A stretch of DNA of 60,280 nucleotides from Candidatus Omnitrophota bacterium (GTDB lineage: Bacteria > Omnitrophota > Gorgyraeia > Zapsychrales > Zapsychraceae). This document shows positions 40,716 to 60,052 of the stretch, piece after piece (the first letter of the stretch is position 1; every line of letters starts with the position of its first letter). The notes under the pieces were generated by a model. The model saw only the letters and a list, made by a program, of their open reading frames with translations, was not told the origin of the DNA and did no database searches. A program made the translations under genes and the position numbers. The stretch lies in the NCBI GenBank assembly GCA_028280285.1, contig JANQMA010000023.1, positions 1-60,280 of the forward strand, written 5' to 3'.

Positions 40716-40720
40716 TTAAT

Positions 40721-40797: not shown

Positions 40798-40812
40798 CAT
40801 TATCAAGTGCAC

Positions 40813-40845
40813 AAAAAAACCCCCCGCTCTAGAGCGAGGTTTTTT
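40813..40845 (-). terminator. Intrinsic (bidirectional) terminator between pilQ and the pseudopilin genes
   Basis: Minus strand: AAAAAA-CCUCGCU-CUAG-AGCGGGG-GGUUUUUUU. 7-bp GC-rich stem, 4-nt loop, U7 tail. Confidence 0.7.
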
Positions 40846-40921
40846 AATTAAGGGGACACATTACTTAATTCTAAAAGATAATAACAAAAATGAATAATTA
40901 AGTAATGTGTCCCCTTAATTA
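40845..40921. repeat. REPIN-like inverted doublet, family AAGGGGACACATTACTTAATT
   Basis: 26-bp perfect inverted repeat, 40845-40870 and 40896-40921, with a 25-nt spacer. Lies 3 nt past the pilQ stop. Confidence 0.8.
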
Positions 40922-40923
40922 GC

Positions 40924-42507: not shown

Positions 42508-42509
42508 TT

Positions 42510-43603: not shown

Positions 43604-45095
43604 CTTTTTTCTCCGCCTCACGCAACTTGGCAAAAATCCCAAAATTATAAAGCTTCTTATCCTCAACTTCTTTTTCGCGCAAGAAGTCAAACTTACCCTT
43701 TTGTAAAATCGTTGAATCATCAATGCGGCGAATTAACTCGGCAATCGGCTCCATGGTAAAAGCTTGCCCCTTAATACTCGCACGGCCTGATTCACTAAAT
43801 TTAAATGATGTTAAGGCAATATCCTGTGGCAATTCAGCCGAAACAATGGAAAACACCTGCGCCCAAGAAACACGATTGAGCTGTTTGACATAGGTTGCTT
43901 GTGCAAGCACCTGTTCTTTCGTCGCTTCATATTCTTTTCGCTTAGCAAGCAACATTCCTTCTTCTTTTTTACGTGCCTTGATAGTGCTCCTTAAAATTTT
44001 TGTCTCTTTTTTCAAAGAAGTGATCTTTTGGCTCAAATTGTAACTATGCGTCCCAAAAACCAATAAGGCGCTACCTGCCACGGCTAAAGCGACCACAGAT
44101 ACCTTCACTAGATATTTCTTTACCTGAAAAAGCTTAATAAAATGATCTGATGGAAAATCCAGTTTTAAACGGTTGGCCCGTGCAATAATCGGCATCAGCG
44201 CCAGAACATAAATAGGATTAACATTGTGCTCACCCTCAACCGCAATATTTGTAATCTTATTGAGAAACGGCACAATAACATCGATATCCGCAACAGCATT
44301 CCTCATGATATGGCCTAAATCAGGAATTTGTTCTTGATCCCAAATGAGCGCCATGCGGCCGACTTCTTTATTGCCTTTCTCAAGCCCGTAAGAACGTAAA
44401 ACACGTTTTAACTCCGCCACCCACGCGGCAATCACCCGCTCTTTTGCCTCTTGGGAGGCAGCAAGTACATATTGCTGTATCCCGGATGAAAGCTTGTAAA
44501 CTAACTTGTATTTGCCGTCCTCAATGATACTGAAATAGGCCTCTTTTTCATCAAGATAAAAAATCGCATCACAGCTTGTGGCATAGTTGTCGGCTGTTTG
44601 AATCAGTGGTGCAATTTCTTTCAAATTGAGAGGCGAAACCTCAACATTGCGTAACAATAACTTTAAGTCATCTATTTCTTTAAGGGACCCTTTTAAAAAT
44701 TGACGGTTCACCGCTGCGAAAACAACTTTATTTTTGCCTTTCGCGGCAGGATAACGTTTATAAATAAATTCAAATTTGCCTTTTTGAAAACTTGGCAGCC
44801 TTTCTATTTCACTGGAGACCACCTCCTGCATTTCTTTATGCGACAATGCCGGCAGAGTGACTTGATGCACAATACTGTCGCTGCGTGAAATAGTCAGATA
44901 CACGCTGTCCACATAGATCTGCTTCTCAACGATCAAGTTATTAATCGCTTGCGCAAGGTTGCCCTCGACCGACAAGTCTACCCCAACGGCAGCCTTGCCG
45001 GCCTTAAGCACACAATACTCCTTATTACGTTTTTCAGCGTAAACGTAACGCAATGCACTATCCGCAATATCTATGCTTAAAATGCCTTTCTTCAT
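43584..45095 (-). CDS. pilM: PilM-PilN fusion (actin-like ATPase domain + TM + PilN-like region)
   Basis: 503 aa. MKKGILSIDIADSALRYVYAE (PilM-type N-terminus). TM helix VVALAVAGSALLVFG near aa 335, followed by a coiled coil and a PilN-like domain. AAGGA RBS. Confidence 0.65.
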   Translation of the reverse strand: MKKGILSIDIADSALRYVYAEKRNKEYCVLKAGKAAVGVDLSVEGNLAQAINNLIVEKQIYVDSVYLTISRSDSIVHQVTLPALSHKEMQEVVSSEIERLPSFQKGKFEFIYKRYPAAKGKNKVVFAAVNRQFLKGSLKEIDDLKLLLRNVEVSPLNLKEIAPLIQTADNYATSCDAIFYLDEKEAYFSIIEDGKYKLVYKLSSGIQQYVLAASQEAKERVIAAWVAELKRVLRSYGLEKGNKEVGRMALIWDQEQIPDLGHIMRNAVADIDVIVPFLNKITNIAVEGEHNVNPIYVLALMPIIARANRLKLDFPSDHFIKLFQVKKYLVKVSVVALAVAGSALLVFGTHSYNLSQKITSLKKETKILRSTIKARKKEEGMLLAKRKEYEATKEQVLAQATYVKQLNRVSWAQVFSIVSAELPQDIALTSFKFSESGRASIKGQAFTMEPIAELIRRIDDSTILQKGKFDFLREKEVEDKKLYNFGIFAKLREAEKKDDTIEN

Positions 45096-45121
45096 AATCA
45101 GTTCCTTAAATACCTCTAGTA

Positions 45122-45493
45122 TTATTCTTCGTCTTCCTCAAGGTCCTCAGGAAAATCGCCTGTCGCTGTTGCCACTTTTCCGTCGGCGGTGTCCGGATCA
45201 TCCGTAATAGAGTACACAGCACCAAACGGCGCATCGTCATTCGGATTTTCATCTAAATAATCACCTGCGATTAATTCAGCTTCAATATCATCGCAAAGAT
45301 CCCAATCTCTTTCCTGCGTGTAGCACAACATAATCGCCTCATCAATCGTATCAAGATTCGAAAGATGTTTGGCAACGTTTGCACGCTCAATCGCTTTAAC
45401 GGCATTTGGCAGAATTAACGCAATCAAGATACCTGCAATAACCAAAACGATCAAAACTTCTGTTAATGTAAATCCTTTGTTTTGTGTCTTCAT
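45122..45493 (-). CDS. Type IV (pseudo)pilin, probable major subunit, with an acidic C-terminal tail
   Basis: MKTQNKG/FTLTEVLIVLVIAGILIALILPN class III signal with Glu+5. Tail DDPDTADGKVATATGDFPEDLEEDEE. ATG at 45493 (GGGAGA upstream) is preferred over 45508. Confidence 0.8.
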   Translation of the reverse strand: MKTQNKGFTLTEVLIVLVIAGILIALILPNAVKAIERANVAKHLSNLDTIDEAIMLCYTQERDWDLCDDIEAELIAGDYLDENPNDDAPFGAVYSITDDPDTADGKVATATGDFPEDLEEDEE

Positions 45494-45589
45494 TTTTTCT
45501 TCTCCCATGTTTCTTTTATTTAACTTTTGTTTTTATTTTAATCAATTGAGCTGATACATCCTTCGTCAGCCTTCCCCATCTATATAAAC

Positions 45590-45605
45590 AGCAAATACTG
45601 TGCCA
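45590..45605 (-). promoter_or_regulatory. Sigma-54-type promoter upstream of the pilin gene
   Basis: Minus strand reads aTGGCACagtatTTGCTg, matching TGGCAC-N5-TTGCW with correct GG/GC spacing. It lies 7 nt past the pilC stop and ~85 nt upstream of the pilin ATG. Confidence 0.6.
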
Positions 45606-45611
45606 TGTTCC

Positions 45612-46811
45612 CTATGTTAATCCCTGCCAAATGGAAAATACCGGTAAATAGATCGCCAAAAGTGTGATTACGATGATGATGCCTACAAAAACAATCAAAG
45701 CCGGCTCAATAATCGTAAAAAATTTATTCTGCCTGTATTCGACCTCTTCATCAAAATGATGTCCCAGCGTTTCTAACACATCGACAGTCCGCCCGCTGGC
45801 CTCGGCGATTCCAACCATTTCAATCAGCATTACCGGAAAAGTGGCTGCCTCTTTAAAGGCTTCGTATAAAGAAACCCCCTGCTCTACCTTTTCCTGCACA
45901 TCATTAATCCCGTCACGGATGTATTGATTACCCGCGGTCGTTTTTGAAACCTCAAAACTTTCAACCAAAGGTACGCCCGCCCCTATCATAATCGACAAAG
46001 AATTAATGAAGCGCCCTAAAAACATGGACTGCAAAATGTATCCCCAAAACGGAATTTTCAGCTTTAATTTATCAATGTAATACGAAAATTTTTCTTTTTG
46101 CCGCATAAATTTGTACATACCAAAAAAGATTATGCCAATAATAAGAACACTAAGAATAAATGCCCACGAGCGCATAGCCTCTGATATCCCAATAACAATC
46201 CTTGTTAAAGCCGGAAGCTCAACGTTCAATTTAAACAAGACTTTTTGAAAAGTAGGCACAACAAAGGCAAACATACAGATAATCACCAAAATCGCAAATG
46301 AAACCACGATACTGGGATAAAGGGTGACTTTTTTCGTACGCATAATATTTTGCCGGCGCTGCTCCAAATACTGCGTCAGCCTTTTAAGGACAGCAACCAA
46401 TCCCCCTGCCTTTTCCGCGACAGAAATAAGCGCAAGATACAAAGGTGGAAAGATATTAGGGAACTCCCCCAAGGCCTCTGAAATCTTTTTCCCCTTCTCC
46501 AAGTTAAGACGCACATAACTAATCACAAGTTGCATCGTCTTATCTTCTGTTTGCCGCCACAAAATATTCATGGCTAACAAAATCGGAATCCCTGATTCAA
46601 TTAAGGTCGAAAGTCGACGCGTAAACATAAGAAGAATATCAAGTTTTACTTTTTTGGCGTAAATGTGTTTCTTATCATAAGGCTTAGCGCCGATAAAATA
46701 AAAGCTTGAACCGCGCAAATGCTCTTTAACCTCACTCACACTCCGCGCCTCGATAAACCCGAATAACGGCCTACCTGAATCGTCTTTTAATTTATAAATA
46801 TAACTTTTCAT
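45612..46811 (-). CDS. pilC: Type IV pilus platform protein PilC/GspF
   Basis: 399 aa. Duplicated T2SSF domains, three TM segments, typical ...GIPILLAMNIL... and ...GAGVPLVESFEV... segments. Confidence 0.85.
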   Translation of the reverse strand: MKSYIYKLKDDSGRPLFGFIEARSVSEVKEHLRGSSFYFIGAKPYDKKHIYAKKVKLDILLMFTRRLSTLIESGIPILLAMNILWRQTEDKTMQLVISYVRLNLEKGKKISEALGEFPNIFPPLYLALISVAEKAGGLVAVLKRLTQYLEQRRQNIMRTKKVTLYPSIVVSFAILVIICMFAFVVPTFQKVLFKLNVELPALTRIVIGISEAMRSWAFILSVLIIGIIFFGMYKFMRQKEKFSYYIDKLKLKIPFWGYILQSMFLGRFINSLSIMIGAGVPLVESFEVSKTTAGNQYIRDGINDVQEKVEQGVSLYEAFKEAATFPVMLIEMVGIAEASGRTVDVLETLGHHFDEEVEYRQNKFFTIIEPALIVFVGIIIVITLLAIYLPVFSIWQGLT

Positions 46812-46817
46812 ATTCGT

Positions 46818-48467
46818 CTACTCTATTGTAGTTATCCGCATCACTTCTTCGAGCGTCGTTTGTTGCTGCATCACTTTCATAAGTCCAGATTGTCTTAATG
46901 TCGTCATACCTTTTTTTTGGGCATGGGCGGCCAAATCACTTTCGTCGGCCGATTTAACAATCATGTCTTTCATTGCTTTATCAATACATAAAATCTCAAA
47001 GATGCCTGTACGCCCGACATAACCTGTATTAAAACATTTATCACACCCAACAGCTTCAGCTAATTTTGTGCCATTTTTAAATGGGACGTACCCTTTAATC
47101 AAATCGATCGTTTCTTGATCCGGTGTATACTCCCGACGGCAATCCGGACAAAGCGCACGTACCAAACGTTGCGCCACAACACCGATCACAGAAGAACCGA
47201 TGAGAAACGGCTCAATACCCATTTCGAGTAAGCGTGTCACCGCGCCGGCCGCCGTATTGGTATGCACCGTGGATAAAACCAAATGCCCGGTTAATGCCGC
47301 ACGGATCGCGGCATCCGCTGTCTCCACATCGCGGATTTCACCGAGCATAATAATATCCGGATCATGACGCAGGATATTGCGCATGGCACTGGCAAACGTA
47401 TAACCGATGTAACTATTAACCGGTGTTTGATTAATTCCTTCCAGTTCATATTCAACCGGATCTTCAACCGAAATAATATTTTTCGCAACATCATTGAGTT
47501 GTGTCATCAGCGAATAAAGCGTTGTGCTTTTGCCGGCACCCGTCGGACCGGAAACAAGAATCAGACCGTGCGGGCGGCCCATAAGCTCAGTCATCATGTT
47601 TACTTCCGCTGCATCCATACCGAGTGATTCAAATGAACGGCTTGCAAATTTTTTGCTGAGAATACGTAAAACCAGATTCTCACCGTAGATATTACATAAT
47701 GTCGAGATACGCAGGTCATATTCAACACCGGCATGAGTGAACGTCGTGCGTCCATCCTGCGGACGACGGGTTTCGGCCACATCCATACCCGCAATAATTT
47801 TAATACGCGCAATGACATTGCGCTGAAGCTCCCGCGCTACAGGCGACTTTTCATACAAAACACCATCAATGCGGAAACGCACACGCATCTTATCTTTATG
47901 CGGCTCAAAATGAATGTCTGACGCTCTTTCGTGAATCGCGGCATGAATAATCGAATCAACTAAACTGACAATAGTGCTAGAAGAAGCTTGTTGGCTGTCT
48001 TCTTCCTTTTTCTCTGCATCAAGTGTAAGAAATGAATGCGCATGCTCTTGCAAATGTTCTTGAATTTCTGTGAGGCTCGCCATCACCGGTTCAATCAGGT
48101 AGCCGCTTTTGTATTGAATTTCTTGCAGAGCATTTAAATCAAGGGGATTATTAGTCGCGAGTGTAATGGTATTGCCGTTAACGGCAATCGGTAAGACCTG
48201 ATGGGTTTGGGTCAACTCATAGGAAATAAGTTTAAATGCTTCTTTATCAATCGTCTCATCTGTTAAACTGACATAAGGCAGTTGAAACATCTTAGCCAAA
48301 TTCTCGGCCAATTGCTTTTCTGTTACCCACCCTTTATCGACAACCAGCTCGCCGATACGCCGGGGATCAACTTTCTGCACCTCCAGCACCTCAAACAGCT
48401 GGTCCTGTTCAAGAAGTCCTTCACGGCAAAGGACCTGCCCTAGTTTTAATGATTGCTCTTCTCCCAT
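46818..48467 (-). CDS. pilB: Type IV pilus assembly ATPase PilB/GspE
   Basis: MshEN-like N-terminus (KLGQVLCREGLLEQDQLFEVLEVQ). Walker A SGPTGAGKSTTLYS, DPDIIMLGEIRD, GHLVLSTVHT, CPDC...CDKCFNTGYVGR. ATG at 48467 (MGEEQSLKLG) is preferred over the track's start at 48536. Confidence 0.9.
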   Translation of the reverse strand: MGEEQSLKLGQVLCREGLLEQDQLFEVLEVQKVDPRRIGELVVDKGWVTEKQLAENLAKMFQLPYVSLTDETIDKEAFKLISYELTQTHQVLPIAVNGNTITLATNNPLDLNALQEIQYKSGYLIEPVMASLTEIQEHLQEHAHSFLTLDAEKKEEDSQQASSSTIVSLVDSIIHAAIHERASDIHFEPHKDKMRVRFRIDGVLYEKSPVARELQRNVIARIKIIAGMDVAETRRPQDGRTTFTHAGVEYDLRISTLCNIYGENLVLRILSKKFASRSFESLGMDAAEVNMMTELMGRPHGLILVSGPTGAGKSTTLYSLMTQLNDVAKNIISVEDPVEYELEGINQTPVNSYIGYTFASAMRNILRHDPDIIMLGEIRDVETADAAIRAALTGHLVLSTVHTNTAAGAVTRLLEMGIEPFLIGSSVIGVVAQRLVRALCPDCRREYTPDQETIDLIKGYVPFKNGTKLAEAVGCDKCFNTGYVGRTGIFEILCIDKAMKDMIVKSADESDLAAHAQKKGMTTLRQSGLMKVMQQQTTLEEVMRITTIE

Positions 48468-48768
48468 ATCGTTCTGATTGTAAAATATTTGCCCCCCAAA
48501 ATATAAGCATGAGTCAAAATACTTAACACGTACCAAACAAATAAATTACACTTCTTTTACTATTTTGACTGTTCCCTATGAAACGCCGTGGCTACGTTTC
48601 TTAAAGCTAGAGAAAATCGGATTGTATAAAAATGTTTAAACAACTATCGACTATCAATTATGGACTATAATAGGGAAATAATCAATAGGACAAACCCGGA
48701 CAAGCACGAGTGCCATTTTTCGGCAAATTACCATCATTAGCAGGTATTATTACCGTAACCATAACCGA

Positions 48769-51700
48769 TTAAATCATAGCCGGCTCAATGGCGGATAATT
48801 CGTACTCCTCTTCTTCCTGGCGGGGTGCAAGGCCAAGGAGCGGAAGCACGCTTGGCAGAGGAACAAAATTAATAATGACAGGGGTAAAGCCGCGCACATT
48901 GCCGAAATCCTCAAGTGCCGCCGGGTCAAAGTCGATCGTCACACCAGAGCCCTGACGCTCTACCTCAATATCATTCATATCAATCCCACCAACATCCGTC
49001 ATCACAGCATCATCTTTACCATCTTTCTTAACTTTTATTTGATAATAGTCGGGCTGCGTGTCTCCGCCTTTATTATAAGGCCCATTAACAACTTCAACCC
49101 CTTCAGGATAATGATCTGACTCAATTTCTATAATTTCATATTCTTCATCATCCAAACTTGCCAAATCAATCCCAGCTAAGTCAACCATTGTCTCACCTGT
49201 ATCAACAGACGTATCCAACACCCCGGCGTCAAGCGAAGTACGATATTGATTTAAAAGAGCCCCTGCGTGAATCACTTCTTCCATATACACATTCGGAGTA
49301 TGAAAACTCGGATATTCATGCATTCTATATCCAAGAGAAAAACTCTCCCCGTTTCGTGCTAAAACAATCGCATATGGCAATAGAGAAAAAATATACTCTT
49401 CAATTTTTTCTTCATTTAACCTGTCGTAATCTTTTGTATTCAGACTAGCATTAATTTTTTCCAGTTTTTCTTTTAAAATATCATGCTGTTGCTTCGCCAA
49501 CCGCGCAAGAGCTTGATCTTCCTTTTCCGGTGATTTAGTTCTAATAACTTCTAAATAAGCTTCTTTTCTTTTTTGTTTCCACGTCGTAATTGCCAACCTA
49601 TCGCGTATCATCATTTTTTGCCAACTATTTTGAAACGAATCTTTACTATGTTTATTTCGATAATTTAAATAATCCTGTAATAAATAAACTCCAAAAGTCG
49701 ATACAAATAGAATCCCTACAAAAGTCGTCAGTAAAACTGTCTGAAACGTGTCATCCGACATACCCAACACCGCGGCATCGGTATTATTTAACACATAAAG
49801 TATTTCGCGCGCCTTTACACGAAGATCTAAATAATCAACAACAGTATCACTCGATCCTCTATCTTTAAAATTAACACGTCCTGCTGTAATATCGTCAACA
49901 GCTGAAATTTTTTCTAAAACAATATTTAATCTTCGTGCTTGATCGGCATCTAAGGCATAGCGATATTTATGAACAACCAAAAGTTCCTCTAAAAATCGAT
50001 CCCGCTCCTGAACTAATTGTTGTTTAGTTTCACCAAACATAGCATAAAACATATTGTCCCCAACATATTCTATTTGCTCTTGCGAAAAATACAGCGGTAA
50101 CACATCTAAATCTAAAAACTCCTCTACTGCCCGATCAATATCTTTTCTCGAAACATTTCGATTTTTTTCATTCCATTGCTCTTTCAAATTCAAAACATGA
50201 AGTCGAGCCGATAACTTTCTTGCAAATTTTCTTACCTCATCATATAAAATGATTTCTCGCTTATTGCCATCTTCTTTCCAAGCTTGAGAAGAAACTTCTT
50301 CAAAAATATCTTGAACAATATTAACCTCACTTAATTTTTCGATTAATCTTTCTCGCTGGTCATATCTAAATTCACCTAAATAGTCGTTTAACAATTTTAA
50401 CTTATCTAACACCTTTGCCTTTTCTTCCAATAATGATTTTTGCATATCCAAAACATAAATCTGCTCAGCTTCGCTTTCGGCATAAAATGCTTTGTATCTA
50501 TTTCTTTCTTGAAATAAATCACCTTTCACAAAACGATTAACAAAAGAAGATATTTCAGCCCTATTATCACCACGCCCGTCTTCCAATTGATAAAAATGAT
50601 CAAAATCCGGCATTTTTTCTAAAAAGCTATCTGTTGTTCTTTTGGTATCAGAAGTTGAGACACTCTGAGGCGTAAAAACAGTGTCGTAACGATCCATTGT
50701 TTCAAATGTGGCTAGCTCCAAATCACGTTGTAGATTAATATCAAACCCAATATTTAATCCATTCATGTGTTTATTAACAATACCCTTATAGGGCGCATAC
50801 TCTTGTTCAGTCATTGGGTTAGCAATATACGCAAATGTAATATGCCCGACAAATGGAAATTGTGCATGAATATCAGTCCTTTTAGATATCACTGTACGAA
50901 TAACATCAATACCTTTAACAGTTTCTCTATTTTGAGGCTCCACCAAGGCAAGCAATAAAAATGGCGCAAAAGAGCCTAATTCTGTTATTTGAAAATTAAG
51001 ATTGTCAAATGCCTTTGTATCATGTAATTGCTCAAAAGCCGTCTTTACCTTTTGGACAACAATCTTCTCAACATCCTGCTGCGGCTTTCCTTGATATTCA
51101 ATATTCCTTTCTTTAATACGCGCAAGATCATCTGGATTAACCAAATCCTTAAACGTCATATGAAAAGAATCTTCATCCACAAATGCAAGCTTATCCCTTA
51201 GTCCCGCCTCGTTAATATCTTGTTCAATAGCACGTTTGACATCAACAAGCTGACTTTGTGTCCTATCATCAAAGCGAACAATCACTGTATTTCCACGAAA
51301 TTCTTTAAACTCCAAGCTATCTGGATCAAGCTTCGCCCTTGCCGGAATCACATCCTGTTCAGTAAGCTCAATTCGTTCATTCCGTAAATTTGAAAATTCA
51401 TTAAATGCTGCTTTTCTACCGGCACCAATTAATACTTTAGCTGCCTGCTCTAAATCATTAGTGTCGCTTGCAAAAATACGTATGCGATAACCAAATGTAT
51501 TTCCAACCTGAGTAGGGTCTTCTTGTAATTCTATTCCTTTTGAGTCAAGTAATGCCACTACTTGATCTAACTTAATTTCAGGAATTGTCACTTCGATTTG
51601 AGTATTATTAATAATAGCGCTCTGTCCATAAATTCGTTGCACTTCCTCCCGCAATTCATCCAACACCGCCGCGTCGTCTGCGGGCCCCTTTGCAGCTTCC

Positions 51701-54700
51701 TTTAACACCGCATTATCACCATCATCTTTTTTTGTAAAATACCCTAATAATATACCAAAGCTTCCTACAACAACCATTGCTACACCTAATACAGTAAAAA
51801 AATCCGCAGACGACATTGTGGCAAAATCATCAACATCAGCTTTCTGTCCCAACACCGCTGAGTCAACTCTAAACACTCTATCAGTCACATCCTTATTATC
51901 TCCTTGTGTTCTTTTATCCACAATATCAATCGCTAACTTCACATAACCACTTCGTTCAGTAGTCTCATAAAGATTAGCTGATTCGCTTATAAGAGAACGT
52001 ATGTGCTTCAATTCAATATCTGCATTTTCGCCTAATTCCATATAGCGTTTGATTTGGTCTAATACCGGTGGGTGCACATATACTGAAACACCGCCTCTAT
52101 TCCACATTTCATCAACTATCTTTTCATCTGCTTTCTTAAGAATTTGTTTTTTATAAATCTCATATTGAACTGTTAAATTTAGATCTTTTAAAGGCTCATA
52201 AGTCCTTAAAAGATACCCTGCACGCGCCCATTCATCAATAGAAACATTTGGAGTATTAAAACCAGGGTAATCATACATTGTATATTTTAGAGAAAATTTT
52301 TCACTGTTTTGAGCCAACAAAATAGCACTAGGTAACAATGAAAAAATATTTTCTGTTATTTGTTCATCTGACATTTTGTCATAATAACGCGTATCTAATG
52401 TCTCATTTATTCTTTCTAATTCACCCTTTAAAAAGTCAAACTGCTCTTTAACAAGCTTGGCTTTAATCTGATGCCTTCTATCTTTTGATTTACTATTGAC
52501 TATATTGTAATAAGCATTTTCACGCTTCTCTTGCCAATCCAATATTCCAGTAGAATTAAATAGCGCCAACCAATCTTCTTCAAAACCTTTAATAACTTTA
52601 TTTTCACGAAACTTTAAATATCCCCCTAAAAGTGGCGCGCCTAAAGCAAGTCCAAGTGTAATCACTAGAAAGGCTACCGTCTTAATTGTCTCAGCTGTAT
52701 CAACAGACATACCCAACACTGCATCATCTTTTTTAATAACTTCAACTCTAACTGAAGTAGTAAAATCTTCTTTTTTAGGTTCTTCAGGAAGGCTAGCAGG
52801 GGGACCACTCGCATCTATCTCCCCTATTTCGTACCACGCCATCGCTTCTGCATACCCTGTCTCATCAAAAATAGCTTCATGATATATCACATCAAACTTT
52901 TCATGAGCACGGTAAATTTCGTCGCCAATAATATCTATTACTTTTTGAATATTATTATTAGTAACAGCATCATATGCGTGTGGCTTTAGTTTATCCTGGA
53001 TAGCTTGTCTTGCCTCTCTGGATGTTATACGATCCCATTTTAATAAATCACCTAACTCAAACTTCTTTATCGCCTCAGATAATAATTCATACTGCGGCGT
53101 CTGTTCCGCATACCATCCGTCAGGTCGCACGCCTCGTGTTCCCCCCATATTGGAACCGGTCATTGTAGAAGAGAAATATTCATACTCCTTCGCGACACGA
53201 TTCATAACAGTATTTTTCAAATACTCTAATCCACGATAATCCCCCGATAAATACATTTCTCCCACAAAATCAACCGCATCTTTAATTGCTGTATGAGGCA
53301 ATGAATCCTCATTATACCTTTCCATCTCACCGGTGAGCTCATCGGCGGTGAACATCTTGTCTTCAGCAGTTAACTCCTGTAGCTCATCCCACAAATCGTT
53401 TAAATACTGCTCATCGCCAGTTTTCTTAGCATTCATTGCCTTTTCTGTTAAAAAATCCGCTGCTTTTATTTCATCCTGCATAAATCCAAACTGCTCTAAC
53501 GCTCTCTTGGCTTCAGAAGAAACATACTTATCCGCATGGGCAAGATTATTTTTTAATGTTCTAACGGCGCGCCAATAGCCAAGCTCTCCTAATGTGCTCA
53601 TCGGCTGCCAAGGATAAGGATGGTGACCATTTTTTGCCGCAGCCATGTTGGCAATCACGAGATCTTCTGCAGTAAATTCCGAAGGATATGAAAGAAATAA
53701 TTTAGCGACCTGCTCATGAATCTTTTTGTTAGAATAACCGAGAAAAGGTAGTACATACTTATTATAACTCCCATCATAATCTTGACGTGCTATTTCCCAT
53801 CCTATTTTACGAATAGCATCTAATATTTCTTGTTCAGAATGTTCATTTGGATTTTCTAAAATTTTAATTGCTGTTTTCAAGAACACAACAATCGTCGCGG
53901 CATCAGTTTCTTGCAATGTCGCACGATCTTTTTTAAGAATGTATGGTTCATTATCTCCTGTTGGAACATTCTTAGACGGATCATTTAAACCGGAAAAAAT
54001 AATATAATAAGGTTCTTCGTCCCTGTCGTGAATATTTAACGGTCGCTTTTGTCTAATAGCCGACGTAGCATTGGCACTGCTGCGTTTTCTTTCGATTTTT
54101 AATGCTATTTGACTAGGTCTGTTAGCCAGGTTTTTTAACAATTCCGGCAGTTTTACAATAAGACCCTTTGTTTCACCGGAACGCAAAGTTGTTTTGGGTT
54201 TATTGGTATCTTTGCCTTCTTCTATAAAGCCAACCTCAGCTTTTAAGCCCACATCGGTATCATCCCATTGAAGATAGGCGTCAACATTTGTAATCGACAT
54301 TTTTTCCGTGCCATTATTTTCCAAAAAAACATATAAATTATTGTCATACCATTCAACCGAGGCGCCTGGAATAGAAGTACGTATGCCTAGAACGATAAAA
54401 TCGGCCGTGGTTTTAGTGACATTAACTTCTTTAACACCGTCCCACTGCGTTGGCATCTTAACTTTATCCGGAACAAAATTGCGAATAGAGTCGACGTTAA
54501 ACGATGTTTGTGCGCCTGCCGTACATACCCCGGCCAAACACACCGTCATCAAACTTACAGTAAGCATTGGCAATACCTTAGATTTAAACAGCATCGCCTT
54601 ATCACCTTCGATGACTTTTTTGACAAAGACTCCGATTAATGGGTTTTCTTGGCTTATACGGGAGAAAAGCTCCTTTTGTGTTAGTTTCACCGCATTAAGC

Positions 54701-57700
54701 AATCCGCCCATTTCTTCAGAAAGCTCATTCTTTTCATCAGACGTAAGTTCCTTATGAAGCGCGATCGCATCCTTCCAATTTTGTGCCGATAATATCTTAA
54801 GGTCACCTTCTACCGTCCAGTCTCCACTCGCATAGTTAGCTATCAGACGAAACGTTTCCCCCACAATGTCATAAAGCGTGGTTTCTTCTCTTTGGTAGTC
54901 AACCGTATAGCTGACAGGTTTGATTTGCCCTTCTTCAAGAAGGCCTTCACTTATATATTTTGCAATGACACTATTAAACTGACCCTTAGTTCTTAATTGC
55001 TGCAGTGGTGTGTGCATATATAAAATTGTCTGTTCTTGCCCATAAGTAAAAAGGCCTCCATCCTTCATCAAATCGATTGACTTGGTAAAATTTTGCACAG
55101 TATACAAAGCATCCGGTTCGATCAAAACAATGTCATCGTTTTTAAGATCTTTTGCAATATTCGCAAATTGTGAGCCTTCTTCCTCAGCCATTTTTATCAT
55201 AAGTATGCGTATTAAATCCGCTTCTGACACCGTCTCATCGGTTACTTCGGCCATTTTGCGTAAATCAGCCGTTGCTCTTCCTTTTTTACCGGAAATGAGA
55301 ATTTTGTTTCCAATTCCTTGTTGATAAAGATGCATAATTTTTGTTAGGGCGTTTATATCGCTGTTGCCCGGTATCATTAAAATGTCGACACCTGCAGTTG
55401 CCAGCTCTCGTTCGTTTACATCATTATGCACAAGCTTACGAATCAGAGAATCTTCCTTTGTGGCCACATCCAATACGTGGAGAATATGGTCGCCCTTCTG
55501 TTGACGGGAATCCCGACTCTCATCGTTGACCAAATCCGTATACAACGACTCAACCAAATCTGGATTTTTCATACTTCCCAAAACAATCTCCGCCATCGCT
55601 TTTCTGTTGTTTAAAGATTCATTATTAACTAGTGCCTTCATTTGAACTGTAGCCACTATATAATCTTTGCCTTTCCCAAGGGTGCCTTCATCCGTTTCTT
55701 GTGCCGCTTTATTAAGAGGTTTATCAGGATCGATCGTGGGCTCTACAATTTCCGGTGGGATATTAGTGAATAAAAATGTCCTTACTTCATTCGTTTTACG
55801 ATGTTTGTAAACGGCATAGAGCGGATCATCATTGGGTATTTTTTCCCAATTAAAAAACTGAAAAGCTTCTTCAATAAATGCCGCTTCCTGTTGCGCAAAA
55901 AAGTTGGCATATTCGGTATTAATTATATTTTCATATGCCTCTAATCGGTCCGCTAAAGAATTGTCAGCTTGTGCCAAAATATTACGATTGCGTTCAAACT
56001 GATGCAATTCTTCGACATCCATTGGTTTTTCACGAACCACACCAATATGAAAATAATTTCGAATTTTTTTTCTTTCAGGACGAGGCAATTGCCGCACCTG
56101 CTCATAACGCTCCTCAATCGATTGACCGGTAATTCTCTGTTCCGCCAGATCAAGTAACGCGACACTACTGTACTCATCATAAGCCTGCTTTAACTCCCCC
56201 CTTGCAATAAATCTACTCACAATTATTTTCGGACGTGAAACACTAACAAAATCTACCAGCTCGGGTTCACTAAGCATCTCTTCTTTAACACTCTTTATAT
56301 TCCAGTGTACATAAGGATCTGCTGCGGACGCATATTCAACAATTTCAGTAAGCAAAACCCCCTGAAGGACCAATCTTACTTTTTCATCATACACACGCTC
56401 GTTTAAAATATTCTCTGGAACCTGATTTTTATTATAGGAGACAACTTCCGATGTTAACCTGTTTTTATACGTTATAACATTCTTATCTTGAGAAATCTTT
56501 TTCCATAATTCTTGTAAGTTGGAACGATCATAAAAATACGCAAACCTTTTAATCATTGTTTGCAAGCGCTCTGCTACGATCCAATTTTCTTCACCTCTAC
56601 CACCTTTTTTAAAATAGTCATATACATACTTCACCTTGGCATAAAACTCGGGATCACGTTTTGCTAAATTCCGCTCCAAATATTTGAAAAGAAACCCGGG
56701 CACTTGATGTCCGCCTAAAATGTCAGGGTCTCCATATTTATACAATTCTTGAAATATTTTTGTATCGATTTTCTTTTTATCAACATTCTTATCGATCATT
56801 TTTGTGATCGTCTCTTCTTCCAATACAAAAATAGCATTATGGTTTAAGAAAGCCTTGCCGCCATACCAGAATAAGATGAGTCCTTCTGGTATAAGCAAAA
56901 TAGGTGCATAAAAAATGGAGGCGACTACGGCTGCCACGGCCCCCACACCTATTAGAGCTTTGGTGACCCATGACAATTTCTTAGGAAAAAATATTTGATC
57001 CATCTCAGCGGATACTTCTTGAATAGAGTATTTATGCGCATTTTTTATACTCCTTTCCGCCTCTATCAACGTCATCGCCGCGTCGTCTTTACCGTTTTCC
57101 TCATTTCCTTTCGACGACACATTGCCATAATATTTCTCCTCCAAAAGATTAACTTCATCTAGAGTAGCTGGTTTTTTTAATTTATCAGGATAAATCAAAT
57201 AATCATATAGTTTGCCTAAGTCAGAATTGACCTCTTGTGTTAATTCATATAATGCATTGCTATATTCTATATTCCCTTTTTTAAATCCTTCTTGGAACTC
57301 ACGCTTAAGTCTCATTTCTTCCTGTCCAACAAAAGTAATTAGCTCATTTATGCGTGAACGCGTACTCTCATAGCGCAAAGAATTAATGACACTCTCAATA
57401 AATATTAAAAAGATGTTTATCAAAAAGGCTGAATCGGCATCAACATCTTCCGCCATCGCCGCGGCGTCTGTATTCTGTGAACCACCTTCCTTAAGAACAG
57501 CATCATCTTTATTATCTTTCTTAACTTTTATTTGATAATAGTCGGGCTGCATGTCTCCGCCTTTATTATAAGGACCATTAACAACATCAGCCCATTCAGG
57601 ATAATGATCTGACTCAATTTCCATAATTTCATATTCTTCATCATCCAAGTTTGCCAAATCAATCCCGGATAAGCCAACAATTGTCTCACCTGTATCAACA

Positions 57701-59388
57701 GACATACCTAACACCGCGTCGTCTTTTTTGTCATTCCTTGACATTTCATCAAGCTCTTCTTCTGATATAAACGGATCGTCTTGTATTTCTCCCACCCCTT
57801 CTTTACCCAGCTGCTGTAAAACTTTATCATTTATCCATTTGTGTCGCCTTTTCAGCAATCTCAGTTTTTGAATAGCTTTTTGTTTTTGCTCACCACTCAA
57901 ATTTGGAATAGTCTCCTCCAAATTCTCCATTTCTTGTTCTATAGATTCTAACCTATCCACATTTTTGCTAACGGCCATAGCCAGCCTAACCCCTACATAA
58001 ATTATAAAAACCGCTATGACTATGCCAATCTCCGGTGGAAAAGAGTCTTGTTGAGCAAAATAGTTATTATCAAAAAGGTTCATCAAGATCATATATTTTC
58101 TAACTAACGCCGCCGCGTCGTCTGCAAACCCCTCCACATCTTCCTTATCTTCCTTGCCAATCAACATAGCAAAGTCATCCTGCCACCCTAATTGCTTTAA
58201 TTCTTTTGCTTCTTTTTTAGCCAACGCATCCATTGCCGCACTATCTTGATCCGCGATAACGCGTGCAGTAGCTTGATACCGATCACCTACCCCTGCAAAG
58301 GCTGCCATATCCGCATTGTCTGTTGGGGCAATGATGATGGCCGTATCATGAAAACCACCGGAGAAATATTTGCGTGGAATGATGGTTTGGCTTATTGCGT
58401 CGTAGTCTTCTTTAATAAAAGAAAACACGCCCTTCTCATAGGCCTGCATGTAGCGGTTGTAGATTTCGTTGGTTATTTTTTCATCGCCGGTTTCGATCCC
58501 ATCGACTTTGTTTTGATCAGCATAGACTTTGGATAAAAGACTGTTTTTGATATTTTGTTTGTACCATTTGGCGAGGATCAGGGAATGATAGATCTGGCGC
58601 AGTGGTGCGAAATTCTTACCTTGATTTATTTCACGTTCGATTTCGGGAAGGATGAGCTCGCGGATGACTGCAGCGTGTAGCGGTAAGCGTTTAGCGTTTA
58701 GATTACTACTTTCTTTATTCTGATCACTGCTATCCGCTATACGCTCTTCGCTATACGCTAAATAATCTTCTTCCAACATAACTTTCATCCTGGAGTTCAC
58801 TACATACACTGTCCTGTCATACTCATACACACTCGCACTTTCCGGTAAGATCCATACTTTATTAAATAAATCGGTCGGAACTTCATTGATACCGTACTTT
58901 TCGCGGGCCAACCTTTGCACGCGCTTCCAAAACTTCTTACCCAGTTCATCTTCCGGATACATCATGCTGGCGGTTAGTTGTTTTAATATATAATCCTGCG
59001 CAAGCAAGTCACGTCCAAGCGCCGTCTTACCTAATTCATCGGGAATAATGCGATCCTTTTCATACGGAGACAAGTTCACCCACAAATCATCTTGCGGAAC
59101 TGTCATGGCGGCCAAAAAGTACTTTACAAGCTTTTCGGTCTCTTTCTTAACCTCATCAGCATCAAGGGCAGAATTGCCACTATCAATAATAAAATCAAAT
59201 TGGAAAGGATTATCGGGGTGGATAGTCATCCCCTTCAAAAGCACCGGCACATAGGCAGGGCTTTGCAGAACCATAGCCCCCGGAACCGGCAGATTAAGCG
59301 CATTGATTGATTGCGCGTAACTTGGTGGAATTATAGAAGTAGTTGTAAAACAGATAATAATGATACAAGAAATGATTCGGTTAATCAT
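48769..59388 (-). CDS. Giant modular envelope protein (3,539 aa), paralog of the 2,089-aa ORF; function unknown
   Basis: Uninterrupted 10.6-kb ORF. Sec-type signal MINRIISCIIIICFTTTSIIPPSYA. N-terminal domain and C-terminal tail (GGIDMN...GFTPVIINFVPLPSVLPLLGLA) are shared with the other giant ORF. 13 D-x-A-[AV]-[ML] junctions plus one GDKAML variant. At least 7 internal hydrophobic helices. Internal Sec-like signal at aa 1599-1628. 2H-phosphoesterase-like HxTx pair (H2743, H2849). DUF218-like segment (aa ~1327-1467). Confidence 0.9.
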   Translation of the reverse strand: MINRIISCIIIICFTTTSIIPPSYAQSINALNLPVPGAMVLQSPAYVPVLLKGMTIHPDNPFQFDFIIDSGNSALDADEVKKETEKLVKYFLAAMTVPQDDLWVNLSPYEKDRIIPDELGKTALGRDLLAQDYILKQLTASMMYPEDELGKKFWKRVQRLAREKYGINEVPTDLFNKVWILPESASVYEYDRTVYVVNSRMKVMLEEDYLAYSEERIADSSDQNKESSNLNAKRLPLHAAVIRELILPEIEREINQGKNFAPLRQIYHSLILAKWYKQNIKNSLLSKVYADQNKVDGIETGDEKITNEIYNRYMQAYEKGVFSFIKEDYDAISQTIIPRKYFSGGFHDTAIIIAPTDNADMAAFAGVGDRYQATARVIADQDSAAMDALAKKEAKELKQLGWQDDFAMLIGKEDKEDVEGFADDAAALVRKYMILMNLFDNNYFAQQDSFPPEIGIVIAVFIIYVGVRLAMAVSKNVDRLESIEQEMENLEETIPNLSGEQKQKAIQKLRLLKRRHKWINDKVLQQLGKEGVGEIQDDPFISEEELDEMSRNDKKDDAVLGMSVDTGETIVGLSGIDLANLDDEEYEIMEIESDHYPEWADVVNGPYNKGGDMQPDYYQIKVKKDNKDDAVLKEGGSQNTDAAAMAEDVDADSAFLINIFLIFIESVINSLRYESTRSRINELITFVGQEEMRLKREFQEGFKKGNIEYSNALYELTQEVNSDLGKLYDYLIYPDKLKKPATLDEVNLLEEKYYGNVSSKGNEENGKDDAAMTLIEAERSIKNAHKYSIQEVSAEMDQIFFPKKLSWVTKALIGVGAVAAVVASIFYAPILLIPEGLILFWYGGKAFLNHNAIFVLEEETITKMIDKNVDKKKIDTKIFQELYKYGDPDILGGHQVPGFLFKYLERNLAKRDPEFYAKVKYVYDYFKKGGRGEENWIVAERLQTMIKRFAYFYDRSNLQELWKKISQDKNVITYKNRLTSEVVSYNKNQVPENILNERVYDEKVRLVLQGVLLTEIVEYASAADPYVHWNIKSVKEEMLSEPELVDFVSVSRPKIIVSRFIARGELKQAYDEYSSVALLDLAEQRITGQSIEERYEQVRQLPRPERKKIRNYFHIGVVREKPMDVEELHQFERNRNILAQADNSLADRLEAYENIINTEYANFFAQQEAAFIEEAFQFFNWEKIPNDDPLYAVYKHRKTNEVRTFLFTNIPPEIVEPTIDPDKPLNKAAQETDEGTLGKGKDYIVATVQMKALVNNESLNNRKAMAEIVLGSMKNPDLVESLYTDLVNDESRDSRQQKGDHILHVLDVATKEDSLIRKLVHNDVNERELATAGVDILMIPGNSDINALTKIMHLYQQGIGNKILISGKKGRATADLRKMAEVTDETVSEADLIRILMIKMAEEEGSQFANIAKDLKNDDIVLIEPDALYTVQNFTKSIDLMKDGGLFTYGQEQTILYMHTPLQQLRTKGQFNSVIAKYISEGLLEEGQIKPVSYTVDYQREETTLYDIVGETFRLIANYASGDWTVEGDLKILSAQNWKDAIALHKELTSDEKNELSEEMGGLLNAVKLTQKELFSRISQENPLIGVFVKKVIEGDKAMLFKSKVLPMLTVSLMTVCLAGVCTAGAQTSFNVDSIRNFVPDKVKMPTQWDGVKEVNVTKTTADFIVLGIRTSIPGASVEWYDNNLYVFLENNGTEKMSITNVDAYLQWDDTDVGLKAEVGFIEEGKDTNKPKTTLRSGETKGLIVKLPELLKNLANRPSQIALKIERKRSSANATSAIRQKRPLNIHDRDEEPYYIIFSGLNDPSKNVPTGDNEPYILKKDRATLQETDAATIVVFLKTAIKILENPNEHSEQEILDAIRKIGWEIARQDYDGSYNKYVLPFLGYSNKKIHEQVAKLFLSYPSEFTAEDLVIANMAAAKNGHHPYPWQPMSTLGELGYWRAVRTLKNNLAHADKYVSSEAKRALEQFGFMQDEIKAADFLTEKAMNAKKTGDEQYLNDLWDELQELTAEDKMFTADELTGEMERYNEDSLPHTAIKDAVDFVGEMYLSGDYRGLEYLKNTVMNRVAKEYEYFSSTMTGSNMGGTRGVRPDGWYAEQTPQYELLSEAIKKFELGDLLKWDRITSREARQAIQDKLKPHAYDAVTNNNIQKVIDIIGDEIYRAHEKFDVIYHEAIFDETGYAEAMAWYEIGEIDASGPPASLPEEPKKEDFTTSVRVEVIKKDDAVLGMSVDTAETIKTVAFLVITLGLALGAPLLGGYLKFRENKVIKGFEEDWLALFNSTGILDWQEKRENAYYNIVNSKSKDRRHQIKAKLVKEQFDFLKGELERINETLDTRYYDKMSDEQITENIFSLLPSAILLAQNSEKFSLKYTMYDYPGFNTPNVSIDEWARAGYLLRTYEPLKDLNLTVQYEIYKKQILKKADEKIVDEMWNRGGVSVYVHPPVLDQIKRYMELGENADIELKHIRSLISESANLYETTERSGYVKLAIDIVDKRTQGDNKDVTDRVFRVDSAVLGQKADVDDFATMSSADFFTVLGVAMVVVGSFGILLGYFTKKDDGDNAVLKEAAKGPADDAAVLDELREEVQRIYGQSAIINNTQIEVTIPEIKLDQVVALLDSKGIELQEDPTQVGNTFGYRIRIFASDTNDLEQAAKVLIGAGRKAAFNEFSNLRNERIELTEQDVIPARAKLDPDSLEFKEFRGNTVIVRFDDRTQSQLVDVKRAIEQDINEAGLRDKLAFVDEDSFHMTFKDLVNPDDLARIKERNIEYQGKPQQDVEKIVVQKVKTAFEQLHDTKAFDNLNFQITELGSFAPFLLLALVEPQNRETVKGIDVIRTVISKRTDIHAQFPFVGHITFAYIANPMTEQEYAPYKGIVNKHMNGLNIGFDINLQRDLELATFETMDRYDTVFTPQSVSTSDTKRTTDSFLEKMPDFDHFYQLEDGRGDNRAEISSFVNRFVKGDLFQERNRYKAFYAESEAEQIYVLDMQKSLLEEKAKVLDKLKLLNDYLGEFRYDQRERLIEKLSEVNIVQDIFEEVSSQAWKEDGNKREIILYDEVRKFARKLSARLHVLNLKEQWNEKNRNVSRKDIDRAVEEFLDLDVLPLYFSQEQIEYVGDNMFYAMFGETKQQLVQERDRFLEELLVVHKYRYALDADQARRLNIVLEKISAVDDITAGRVNFKDRGSSDTVVDYLDLRVKAREILYVLNNTDAAVLGMSDDTFQTVLLTTFVGILFVSTFGVYLLQDYLNYRNKHSKDSFQNSWQKMMIRDRLAITTWKQKRKEAYLEVIRTKSPEKEDQALARLAKQQHDILKEKLEKINASLNTKDYDRLNEEKIEEYIFSLLPYAIVLARNGESFSLGYRMHEYPSFHTPNVYMEEVIHAGALLNQYRTSLDAGVLDTSVDTGETMVDLAGIDLASLDDEEYEIIEIESDHYPEGVEVVNGPYNKGGDTQPDYYQIKVKKDGKDDAVMTDVGGIDMNDIEVERQGSGVTIDFDPAALEDFGNVRGFTPVIINFVPLPSVLPLLGLAPRQEEEEYELSAIEPAMI
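49000..49218. repeat. Intragenic direct repeat R2 (~216 nt), copy near the 3' end of the giant gene
   Basis: Encodes VLDTSVDTGETMVDLAGIDLASLDDEEYEIIEIESDHYPEGVEVVNGPYNKGGDTQPDYYQIKVKKDGKDDAVM. About 90% nucleotide identity by eye to 57493-57711. Confidence 0.9.
57493..57711. repeat. Intragenic direct repeat R1 (~216 nt), copy near the 5' end of the giant gene
   Basis: Encodes VLGMSVDTGETIVGLSGIDLANLDDEEYEIMEIESDHYPEWADVVNGPYNKGGDMQPDYYQIKVKKDNKDDAVL. Confidence 0.9.
58673..58758. repeat. In-frame palindromic heptamer element, (GCGNNTA)x4 ... (TNNNCGC)x4
   Basis: gcgtgta gcggtaa gcgttta gcgttta ... tatccgc tatacgc tcttcgc tatacgc. Encodes YSEERIADSSDQ...SSNLNAKR. Confidence 0.7.
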
Positions 59389-59439: not shown

Positions 59440-59955
59440 TTATTCCCATATGGGATTTGTTCGAATATACCATCGAACATATTGTAATTCCTGTTTATTT
59501 CTAATAACACGATCATGATAGGAACGTTGCCATAATTTAAAATTTGATTCATCATATTTACCCGTAGGGGCCGACCAACGCGTCGGCCCTAAATTCATCG
59601 GACGATTCGCCTTAATAAATTCATTGGTGGTCATGGTTTTAAACCATTGAATTATTTTTGGTATTGATATTTTCGGGCGGACACATTGGTCCGCCCCTAC
59701 ATTATATTTTATTTTAATAATTCCATGTAAATGATCCGGCATAATTATATATTCATCCAATTCACACAATGAAAATTTACAGGATAATGACCGCCACCAA
59801 AAATCGACCATTTGACCACATAAATCAAGACACATCGTTTCTTCACAAATATCACCAAATAATTTCTGCCTTTTAAACGAACATATTGTCACAAAATAAT
59901 ACCCTGTATTCGTATAATCAAATTCTTTCCATCGTAATTTTTTCCTAACAAACAT
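59440..59955 (-). CDS. IS200/RAYT-like Y1 (HUH) transposase
   Basis: YYFVTICSFKRQKLFG, HUH motif MPDHLHGIIKI, catalytic Tyr region LWQRSYHDRVIRNKQEL. AGGGGA RBS before ATG 59955. The track's longer N-terminus (MRLTVSMHVTVSM) is a translated tandem repeat. Confidence 0.8.
   Translation of the reverse strand: MFVRKKLRWKEFDYTNTGYYFVTICSFKRQKLFGDICEETMCLDLCGQMVDFWWRSLSCKFSLCELDEYIIMPDHLHGIIKIKYNVGADQCVRPKISIPKIIQWFKTMTTNEFIKANRPMNLGPTRWSAPTGKYDESNFKLWQRSYHDRVIRNKQELQYVRWYIRTNPIWE
59564..59592. repeat. GTAG-type REP embedded in frame in the RAYT CDS
   Basis: GTAGGGGCCGACcaacgcGTCGGCCCTAA. Encodes ...LGPTRWSAPT... Confidence 0.7.
59673..59700. repeat. GTAG-type REP, inverted copy, embedded in frame in the RAYT CDS
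   Basis: ttcGGGCGGACacattgGTCCGCCCCTAC, whose reverse complement is GTAGGGGCGGAC...GTCCGCCC. Encodes ...VGADQCVRP... Confidence 0.7.
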
Positions 59956-59968
59956 ATGTTCCCCTAAC

Positions 59969-60052
59969 ATCGACACCGTAACGTGCATCGATACCGTTAG
60001 ACGCATCCGATACGGGTATCGAAACCGTTAAACGTCACCGTAAAATGGGGGG
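59969..60052. repeat. Degenerate ~18-nt tandem repeat (ATCGAYACCGTWARACGYC, 3-4 units) upstream of the RAYT gene
   Basis: atcgacaccgtaacgtgc / atcgataccgttagacgc / atccgatacgggt / atcgaaaccgttaaacgtc / accgtaaaatgggggg. Confidence 0.7.

Follow-up and report, generated by a model that had tools for sequence, protein, structure and literature searches.

A short genome-specific mark between the units of long modular Omnitrophota proteins: possible cut points of a cellular polyprotein

What is the role of a five-residue motif that recurs along the whole length of a bacterial protein? The question is raised by a 60,280-nt stretch of DNA from a Candidatus Omnitrophota bacterium (contig JANQMA010000023.1, assembly GCA_028280285.1; the whole stretch is hereafter the window, and all numbering follows its forward strand). 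Here an open reading frame (ORF) of 3,539 aa, the large ORF (48769-59388, minus strand), carries copy after copy of the pattern D-x-A-[AV]-[ML]. An earlier inspection made without database searches, the sequence-only reading, had noted fourteen copies in this protein and six in a smaller paralog, and had proposed that they divide the chain into modules. We find that long modular proteins across the phylum are punctuated in genome-specific ways, and that the motif is one local form of this punctuation. Below we describe the motif in the window, its forms and position across the family, and the explanations that may account for it.

The motif in the two window proteins

The large ORF consists of a signal peptide, an N-terminal domain (N-domain), about nine motif-separated units and a C-terminal tail. 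Its paralog (9251-15520; 2,089 aa) has the same N-domain and C-terminal tail, and eight motifs; the two proteins are alike only in their N-terminal ~370 aa (52% identity) and in the tail. Signal peptide and N-domain, which define the family, occupy 58354-59388 of the large ORF (aa 1-345, ending in IPRKYFSGG), and its tail lies at 48772-48999 (GGIDMN...FDPAAL...GFTPVIINFVPLPSVLPLLGL), with a further motif copy, DPAAL, at aa 3488-3492. The corresponding parts of the paralog are the N-domain at 14468-15520 and the tail at 9254-9553. All of these features, and every motif copy and segment described below for the two proteins, lie on the minus strand.

With expectations computed from each protein's own composition, the large protein has 13 copies of the strict pattern D.A[AV][ML] as compared to 0.32 expected (Poisson p = 4e-17), and the paralog has 8 as compared to 0.18 (p = 2e-11), in agreement with the earlier estimate of well under one chance occurrence per protein. 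The 29 other window ORFs of at least 150 aa, ~12,000 aa in all, contain a single copy. The motif copies are not all independent, because two segments of the large ORF are duplicated from the motif onward; after the duplications are accounted for, roughly 10 independent sites are left in the large protein, still far above chance. Given the enrichment in both window and family, chance or composition was rejected as the source of the motif. Every one of the 14 and 6 positions previously given proved exact on the translation, and the three hydrophobic stretches quoted with them are present. Twelve of the 14 large-protein copies fit the pattern as it had been worded but DKAML1600 and DAGVL3391 do not, and four copies had been overlooked: DFAML409, DPAAL3492, DTAAL1656 and DFAAL1949 (numbers are those of the final residue).

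The copies can be followed along the large protein from the N-domain to the tail. DSAAM (58231-58245, aa 382-386) closes an appendix of the N-domain, and is followed by DFAML (58162-58176, aa 405-409), which has the DxAM form found family-wide, and by DAAAL (58105-58119, aa 424-428), 30 aa before a hydrophobic helix at aa 454-472. DDAVL (57709-57723, aa 556-560) opens the duplicated segment aa 556-637. A twin motif at 57454-57507, composed of DDAVL (aa 628-632), an 8-aa spacer and DAAAM (aa 641-645), precedes a helix at aa 650-668, and DDAAM (57073-57087, aa 768-772) stands 47 aa before the helix at aa 815-833. The Met of DKAML (54589-54603, aa 1596-1600) opens a signal-peptide-like stretch, MLFKSKVLPMLTVSLMTVCLAGVCTAGAQT. 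Further along, DDAVL (52714-52728, aa 2221-2225) opens a unit that we call B, with its helix at aa 2238-2256; DSAVL (51850-51864, aa 2509-2513) comes before the helix at aa 2530-2548; and a second twin at 51661-51717 joins DNAVL (aa 2558-2562) through a 9-aa spacer to DAAVL (aa 2572-2576). DAAVL (49765-49779, aa 3204-3208) opens unit B', whose alignment with unit B starts at the motif and shows 43% identity. The degenerate DAGVL (49216-49230, aa 3387-3391) opens the duplicate of aa 556-637, and DDAVM (49000-49014, aa 3459-3463) stands directly before the C-terminal tail. In the paralog, motifs start at aa 352, 752, 1210, 1476, 1652, 1662, 1945 and 1956, and include a twin junction cassette, DTAAL-NQEPT-DPAAM (10523-10567), with a 21-nt core CCAACCGACCCGGCGGCGATG.

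Three features tie these copies to the borders of units. All eight internal hydrophobic segments of the large protein (starting at aa 454, 650, 815, 1605, 2238, 2530, 3218 and 3503) have a motif 9-47 aa upstream. Both internal duplications start at a motif: aa 556-637 (57478-57723) recurs as aa 3387-3468 (48985-49230) with 77% aa and 90% nt identity, and aa 2221-2400 (52189-52728) as aa 3204-3386 (49231-49779) with 43% aa identity. A module at aa 1306-1595 (54604-55473), common to seven relatives, ends directly before a motif in the large protein, as it does in five of those relatives. For the unit that follows it (aa 1598-2225), a homolog search intended as a test of its N-terminal boundary was empty.

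Pfam recognises one domain in the large protein, a 2H-phosphoesterase-like domain (PF08975; 51043-51312, aa 2693-2782) within the unit between the motifs at aa 2572 and 3204, and none in the paralog; NCBIfam finds nothing above family cut-off in either. In the paralog DPAAM is twice followed by a Tat-like signal, MDMNRRRFIRTVGALMVLG... and MNRRKFVKTAVSAAGALALGVDAQA, the second of which gives a sub-threshold NCBIfam Tat-signal match.

A family-wide mark in genome-specific forms

Both window proteins, each with a signal peptide and the N-domain, are members of a large Omnitrophota family that combines signal peptide, N-domain, variable cargo and a conserved tail. More than 1,200 database proteins match the N-domain at E<=1e-5, those listed being 43-61% identical over the N-terminal ~10% of the query, and wherever the source is named it is Candidatus Omnitrophota/Omnitrophica. 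A census based on one genome per species (GTDB) confirmed 583 loci, up to 8 in one metagenome-assembled genome (MAG); some of the MAGs are labelled 'uncultured Planctomycetales'. The N-domain comprises ~330 aa (WVNLSPYE ... LAQDY.LKQLT ... FNKVWI.P ... LRQIY ... IPRKYFSGG; alignment A1, 63 invariant columns) and has no sequence match in Pfam, NCBIfam or PDB. In the searchable literature we found no description of the N-domain family, its signature strings or the motif. The tail, GGID(M/L)N ... F-D-P ... G(F/L).PVIIN..P....P.LLG, is carried by the two window proteins and by 113 of the 120 proteins in which it was sought, and ends in a hydrophobic PVIIN..P....PLLGL stretch. Its second site, F-D-P-[AV]-M-M (alignment A2), has Met in proteins with the DxAM form of the motif, and reads FDPAEL or FDPVEI in those with the SSP form described below; the F-D-P site of the tail thus co-varies with motif form. 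An AlphaFold2 model of the tail was of low confidence (predicted local distance difference test, pLDDT, 66; predicted template modelling score, pTM, 0.23) and uninformative.

Most family members have a length of 2,000-5,700 aa, and the range of their Pfam domains is wide: phosphoglucomutase (PGM), PEP synthase/pyruvate phosphate dikinase (PPDK), phosphoglycerate kinase (PGK), enolase, aldolase, NDK, methyltransferases, radical SAM and receiver domains, with HEAT, ankyrin and TPR repeat domains frequent and M48 peptidase units in six relatives. Against these relatives with their many enzyme domains stands the large window protein, with its signal peptide, eight hydrophobic segments and one Pfam domain. 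Family-wide, an N-terminal signal peptide heads chains with normally cytoplasmic enzymes (PGM, PPDK, PGK, enolase, aldolase, HPr, receiver domains), and these enzyme-bearing chains have few or no further membrane helices.

The pattern seen in the window is real there but is a local variant. In 119 homologs D-x-A-[AV]-[ML] occurs 47 times as compared to 27 expected, ~1.7-fold, and was rejected as the family motif; the general form is D-x-A-M-[LMTVAI]-[ASTGV], in short D-x-A-M-[LMTV], and its D.AM core is present 394 times as compared to 36.7 expected. The flanks of the motif hold no information content and are rich in polar residues. D.AM is absent from 39 of the 119 relatives, many of which carry [AS]SSP[IV] at equivalent places, for example directly after the N-domain. 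Across 120 proteins, 62 have at least two DxAM only, 25 at least two SSP[IVL] only, 3 both and 30 neither (Fisher p = 1e-7). Other forms are NxAML in one MAG, DxAVL in two MAGs, and DxAA[MIL] in three family proteins (P0100, P0041 and P0034), the last of which together with DxAVL makes up the form seen in the window. The paralogs of one genome have their motif form in common. Between the orthologs P0006 and P0022, 77% identical over 2,600 aa, DAAMV aligns with SSSPI and DKAMT with DSSMV, column for column.

The mark is restricted to the family, as the sequence-only reading had suggested be checked. At 22 DxAM loci, family ORFs contain 111 D.AM in 32,900 aa as compared to 4.6 expected; the other ORFs of at least 150 aa at the same loci contain 13 in 70,450 aa as compared to 7.2 expected, and 7 of these 13 fall in two further family members. 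The window, with its low motif density in unrelated ORFs, and two further loci show the same pattern.

The motif is, moreover, a short linear mark in polar linkers between protein-sized units. The module shared by the large window protein and seven relatives is followed by DKAML in the window, DAAMS in P0026, DNAML in P0012, SSSPV in P0003 and SSSPI in P0002, and in P0004 by SSSPA, which is outside the SSP[IVL] pattern. In 8 proteins with Pfam coordinates, Pfam matches contain only 1 of the 86 internal motifs, as compared to 13.9 expected (p = 5e-6). What the motifs bracket is entire enzymes rather than single domains: PGM domains I-IV of P0063 (aa 1320-1822) are flanked by motifs at aa 1300 and 1849, and PPDK_N, the mobile domain and PEP_C of P0078 (aa 1302-2270) by motifs at aa 1187 and 2726. 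The same holds for HPr of P0056 (aa 4151-4230; motifs at aa 4132 and 4247), the receiver (REC) of P0118 (aa 1953-2054; motifs at aa 1947 and 2080) and the aldolase of P0110 (aa 3247-3546; motifs at aa 3180 and 3590). Units are also shuffled at the motif: alignment blocks of P0049 (aa 433-1070, 1111-1702 and 1727-2253; motifs at aa 426, 1070, 1095, 1705 and 2257) recur in different order in P0073, and other protein pairs behave similarly. When all pairs are taken together, 32% of the distinct starts of alignments, and likewise 32% of their ends, fall within 30 aa of a motif, as compared to 14% at random (p = 1e-7 and 1e-8). The shared module end, Pfam avoidance, unit-shuffling breakpoints that fall on motifs and family restriction thus strongly support the earlier proposal that the motif divides the protein into modules. 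Two of the checks named with that proposal could be computed, motif density in unrelated proteins and the mapping of module gain and loss to the motif, and both turned out in its favour.

That proposal had also described a repeating unit of junction, hydrophobic helix and soluble domain. This holds for the large window protein but is only a tendency family-wide: a motif lies within 60 aa upstream of 38 of 86 internal helices (44%), as compared to 14 downstream and 12 (14%) at random, and a strong helix follows only ~7% of DxAM motifs. Pairs of motifs at a distance of 8-40 aa, or twins, account for 50 of 416 gaps and enclose a semi-conserved spacer, as in DLAM-AIEPQS-DNAM; the window has four (DDAVL-KEGGSQNT-DAAAM, DNAVL-KEAAKGPAD-DAAVL, DTAAL-NQEPT-DPAAM and DFAAL-DSEAKP-DPAAM).

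What may read the mark

The motif is selected as a peptide, since its residues are kept while the codons vary across genomes. Asp at 133 DxAM sites is encoded by GAT (83) or GAC (50), and Ala by all four codons with a mild excess of GCG (58 as compared to 39 expected). The first Ser of SSP is written AGC, AGT and TCN, drawing on both Ser codon families, and a low-GC genome (L025) has AGT-AGT-CCT in place of TCC-TCG-CCG; in two other genomes Val of DxAVL is mostly GTC, with GTT also used. In the SSSP[IV] form (L003 10001-23173, L005, L006, L045 and L066), TCG-CCG is used almost without exception for the second Ser and the Pro.

Dozens of sites per genome change together, from which we infer one trans-acting reader changing with them, and the motif is very probably an inter-unit mark read by such a common factor. 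Of the three mechanisms that the sequence-only reading had offered (proteolytic processing, a hinge between modules, or the trace of recombination), processing best fits the genome-specific forms, and recombination is disfavoured by the codon drift. Processing is the most likely function because the best-known arrangement of this kind is a polyprotein with its protease; on this analogy, we give almost an even chance to the reader being a protease that cuts the chain at the marks. The long ORFs would then be polyprotein-like chains of signal peptide, N-domain, a variable series of units and the C-terminal tail, with a mark in the polar linker just upstream of each unit, and upstream of its N-terminal helix or signal-like segment where one is present. 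An endopeptidase acting at the marks would set the units free; any unit that begins with a helix or signal-like segment would become a separate membrane-anchored or exported protein, and twin motifs would release short spacer peptides. We put forward tentatively, as a possibility short of a probable one, that ordinary enzymes, regulators and membrane proteins are made as one chain and separated at a genome-specific five-residue code by a co-evolving protease.

A reader need not cut. Giant proteins of the phylum have been treated as membrane-anchored architectures (10.64898/2026.06.07.730766), and the mark could be an uncut docking or hinge motif in a chain that stays intact as a membrane-tethered multi-enzyme scaffold, an explanation that we regard as unlikely but of real weight. 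The mark would then be bound by a repeat domain (HEAT, ankyrin or TPR), a chaperone or an export factor, or would be a structural cap at the start of a unit. Position, restriction and genome-specific forms fit any trans-acting reader equally, and HEAT, ankyrin and TPR domains are frequent in the family. A structural cap finds some favour in the residues at motif position 1: D, N and S are classical helix N-cap residues, and the low-confidence AlphaFold2 model of the tail would start a helix right after the D-P of DPAAL. Such a cap gives no reason, however, for the coordinated DxAM/SSSPV switches between 77%-identical orthologs, and twin motifs 8-40 aa apart look more like excised spacer peptides. 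It is improbable, in turn, that the peptide is functionless and the motif a DNA-level trace of junctions at which units were inserted, duplicated and exchanged by recombination. Unit-shuffling breakpoints do coincide with motifs, but breakpoints are expected in linkers because only such recombinants are viable. The window does show repetition at the DNA level: the 21-nt CCAACCGACCCGGCGGCGATG has three exact copies in the paralog (first bases 13273, 11899 and 10543, minus strand; at the junctions at aa 752 and 1210 and in the twin cassette), its 15-nt core GACCCGGCGGCGATG has four (13267, 11893, 10537 and 9655, minus strand), and both encode (E)PTDPAAM junctions between unrelated flanks; in the large protein, a 51-nt junction stretch (aa 554-570 and aa 2219-2235) is 90% identical. 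Such exact repeats within a genome indicate that junction cassettes are also copied or homogenised at the DNA level. Codons are likewise biased, with GCG at position-3 Ala in 16 of 21 window motifs (background 29%) and GAC at Asp in 11 of 21 (background 21%), and P0118 has almost invariant GCC-TCC-TCG-CCG-GT junctions. Set against this, residues are kept while codons drift across genomes, and the variable second position splits the DNA motif into pieces too short for homologous recombination.

Very improbable is the further explanation that the Met, Val or Leu of the motif is an internal or ancestral start codon, its units being translated separately or their starts being relics of gene starts. 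It would account for the Met of DKAML and DPAAM that opens signal-peptide-like or Tat-like sequence in the window, for GTG as the codon of the motif Val in 8 of 9 window cases, and for REC units that begin 3-8 aa past the motif, like native response regulators after their Met. But the motif Met is not preceded by a Shine-Dalgarno-like sequence of the kind seen at several true starts in the window; SSSP[IV] has no start codon yet is column-aligned with DxAM[LV]; DxAVL elsewhere uses GTC or GTT; and the conserved upstream D-x-A would be left without explanation. Promoter-like and terminator-like sites inside the gene occur at shuffled-sequence level. Alternative start codons, internal promoters and internal terminators were accordingly rejected.

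The junction repeats and codon biases of the window weigh against processing at a peptide code, and several other observations do so too. No residue is common to all motif forms, which agree only in that position 3 is small and position 5 aliphatic, so a single protease family is not implied, and some family-bearing genomes show no recognisable motif. The SSPI of P0118 (L003) at aa 690 is an exception in position, standing at the first residues of a partial triosephosphate isomerase (TIM) match (aa 685-856). Neither Pfam nor NCBIfam finds a protease domain in the large protein, and no protease gene adjoins either paralog. The N-domain offers no help: its AlphaFold2 model (pLDDT 68) gave a best Foldseek E-value of 0.96, hence no match at E<=0.001, and none of its alignment columns tracks motif form. 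A peptidase candidate in the window, a unit of the paralog with an HExxH motif, cannot be the general reader because it has only two detectable relatives among 1.84 billion representative sequences.

That unit (11894-13252, minus strand; aa 757-1209) begins with a Tat-like signal straight after DPAAM and has HETTH at aa 983-987. Both of its relatives are family members in which HExxH is conserved, and in P0122 each HExxH copy is bracketed by DxAM; we suggest this part of the paralog as a candidate zinc peptidase unit specific to the family. Three candidates for roles in the system were thus set aside: the HExxH unit as general cognate protease, being too rare; the N-domain as a recognisable protease or known fold, there being no Foldseek or PDB sequence match; and N-domain columns as determinants of motif form, where the best total-variation distance was 0.73 and forms cluster phylogenetically. 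The TIM match of P0118 begins at profile position 47, and would represent either a truncated TIM unit or an exception to the between-unit rule.

Genomic setting and comparison with known systems

The window is ordinary chromosome, with genes for MreBCD, a PBP2-like transpeptidase, a RodA-family protein, an EPSP-synthase-family protein, LspA, a class I tRNA synthetase, a UvrD-type helicase, a PD-(D/E)XK nuclease and a type IV pilus/type II secretion-type cluster. This cluster (38107-48536) follows immediately downstream of the large ORF, also on the minus strand, and contains PilB/GspE-, PilC/GspF-, PilN-, PilO- and secretin-type genes together with two proteins that have an N-terminal methylation motif. 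It was not seen adjoining family members at two relatives' loci, and a conserved linkage of the family to the pilus cluster was rejected on this ground. Just upstream of the large ORF, a 188-aa ORF (59440-60006, minus strand) gives a weak IS200/Y1-transposase-like Pfam match (E = 1.2e-4, below the curated cut-off). The region of the large ORF (48001-58000) has a G+C content of 36-40%, as compared to 42-46% in its neighbours, and a more negative GC skew than theirs; the skew is negative across the whole window, where 31 of 32 ORFs of at least 150 aa are on the minus strand. The stretches 7505-9250 and 15521-16351 have no ORF of this size, and Rfam and tRNA scans of the 60-kb window were empty.

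Omnitrophota are known for giant proteins, defined by a length of at least 10,000 aa (10.64898/2026.06.07.730766) or a gene above 20-30 kb (PMC10066038). Three recent studies describe their size and domain content and leave undecided whether the chain works intact or in many separate pieces. It has been proposed that they are cleaved into several products (10.1101/2023.11.21.568195; 10.64898/2026.06.07.730766), the cleavage points being stated as unknown in 10.1101/2023.11.21.568195, and in one giant-protein study the missing cleavage points blocked structural analysis. The 'Archaeovorins' and 'multi-enzyme metabolic cluster' proteins resemble the present family in belonging to the same phylum and in placing glycolytic and sugar enzymes, PPDK, HEAT, methyltransferases, NUDIX and receiver domains on one membrane-associated chain, but are at least 10,000 aa long as compared to the 3,539 and 2,089 aa of the window proteins. 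N-domain, C-terminal tail and junction motif appear in neither giant-protein paper, and the words motif, cleav*, junction and linker are absent from 10.64898/2026.06.07.730766.

A mark that is family-restricted, genome-specific and set around whole enzymes supplies candidate cut points for such long chains. It allows them to be split into units for structure prediction and annotation, and turns the polyprotein question into a simple proteomic test. If processing is true, cellular organisms would here be making unusual, large-scale use of polyproteins, under a cleavage code specific to the lineage. The system would be comparable to that of RNA viruses, and many paralogous genes in each genome would use it. 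Its code (DxAM[L], SSSP[VI], NxAML and DxAVL/DxAAM) could then parse the phylum's giant proteins into their mature products, and would bear on metabolic organisation in small-celled, apparently host-dependent bacteria. Should the mark prove to be a docking motif, it would still set out the grammar by which a scaffold is assembled.

Three known systems invite comparison. Viral polyproteins, cut by enzymes such as picornavirus 3C, potyvirus NIa and the nidovirus main protease, yield many mature proteins with short conserved sites between them; site and protease specificity co-evolve and differ between lineages, and spacer peptides can be released between neighbouring sites. The Omnitrophota family is similar in having conserved short sites between protein-sized units, but is encoded on a cellular chromosome. 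No embedded protease was detected in the large window protein, and within a genome one code is common to many paralogous chains (one MAG has up to 8 loci). VENN in CdiA and PxxxxDPxGL in Rhs are likewise short peptides at the border of a conserved and an exchangeable part, and coincide with recombination breakpoints. In those proteins a single border precedes one C-terminal toxin, whereas here up to 17 marks per protein separate non-toxin units; Pfam finds no FHA or Rhs repeats, and the genes downstream are of pilus/secretion type, with no immunity gene.

In the MARTX toxins of Vibrio and relatives, effector units are separated by processing sites in unstructured segments, small-Leu-small, which are cut by the protein's own cysteine protease domain (PMC2900308; PMC6315884). 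The window proteins have no sequence relationship to MARTX and, as judged by Pfam and NCBIfam, neither glycine-rich RTX repeats nor an InsP6-activated cysteine protease domain; their neighbours are pilus/secretion-type genes and not adjoining type I secretion genes. The cargo of the Omnitrophota family is mostly housekeeping-type enzymes rather than toxins, and its mark is a motif of 4-5 residues that varies between genomes. What the two have in common is the plan of very long secreted proteins in which the ends are conserved and the central array of units varies from strain to strain, and, taken as an analogy, MARTX is the closest working analogue.

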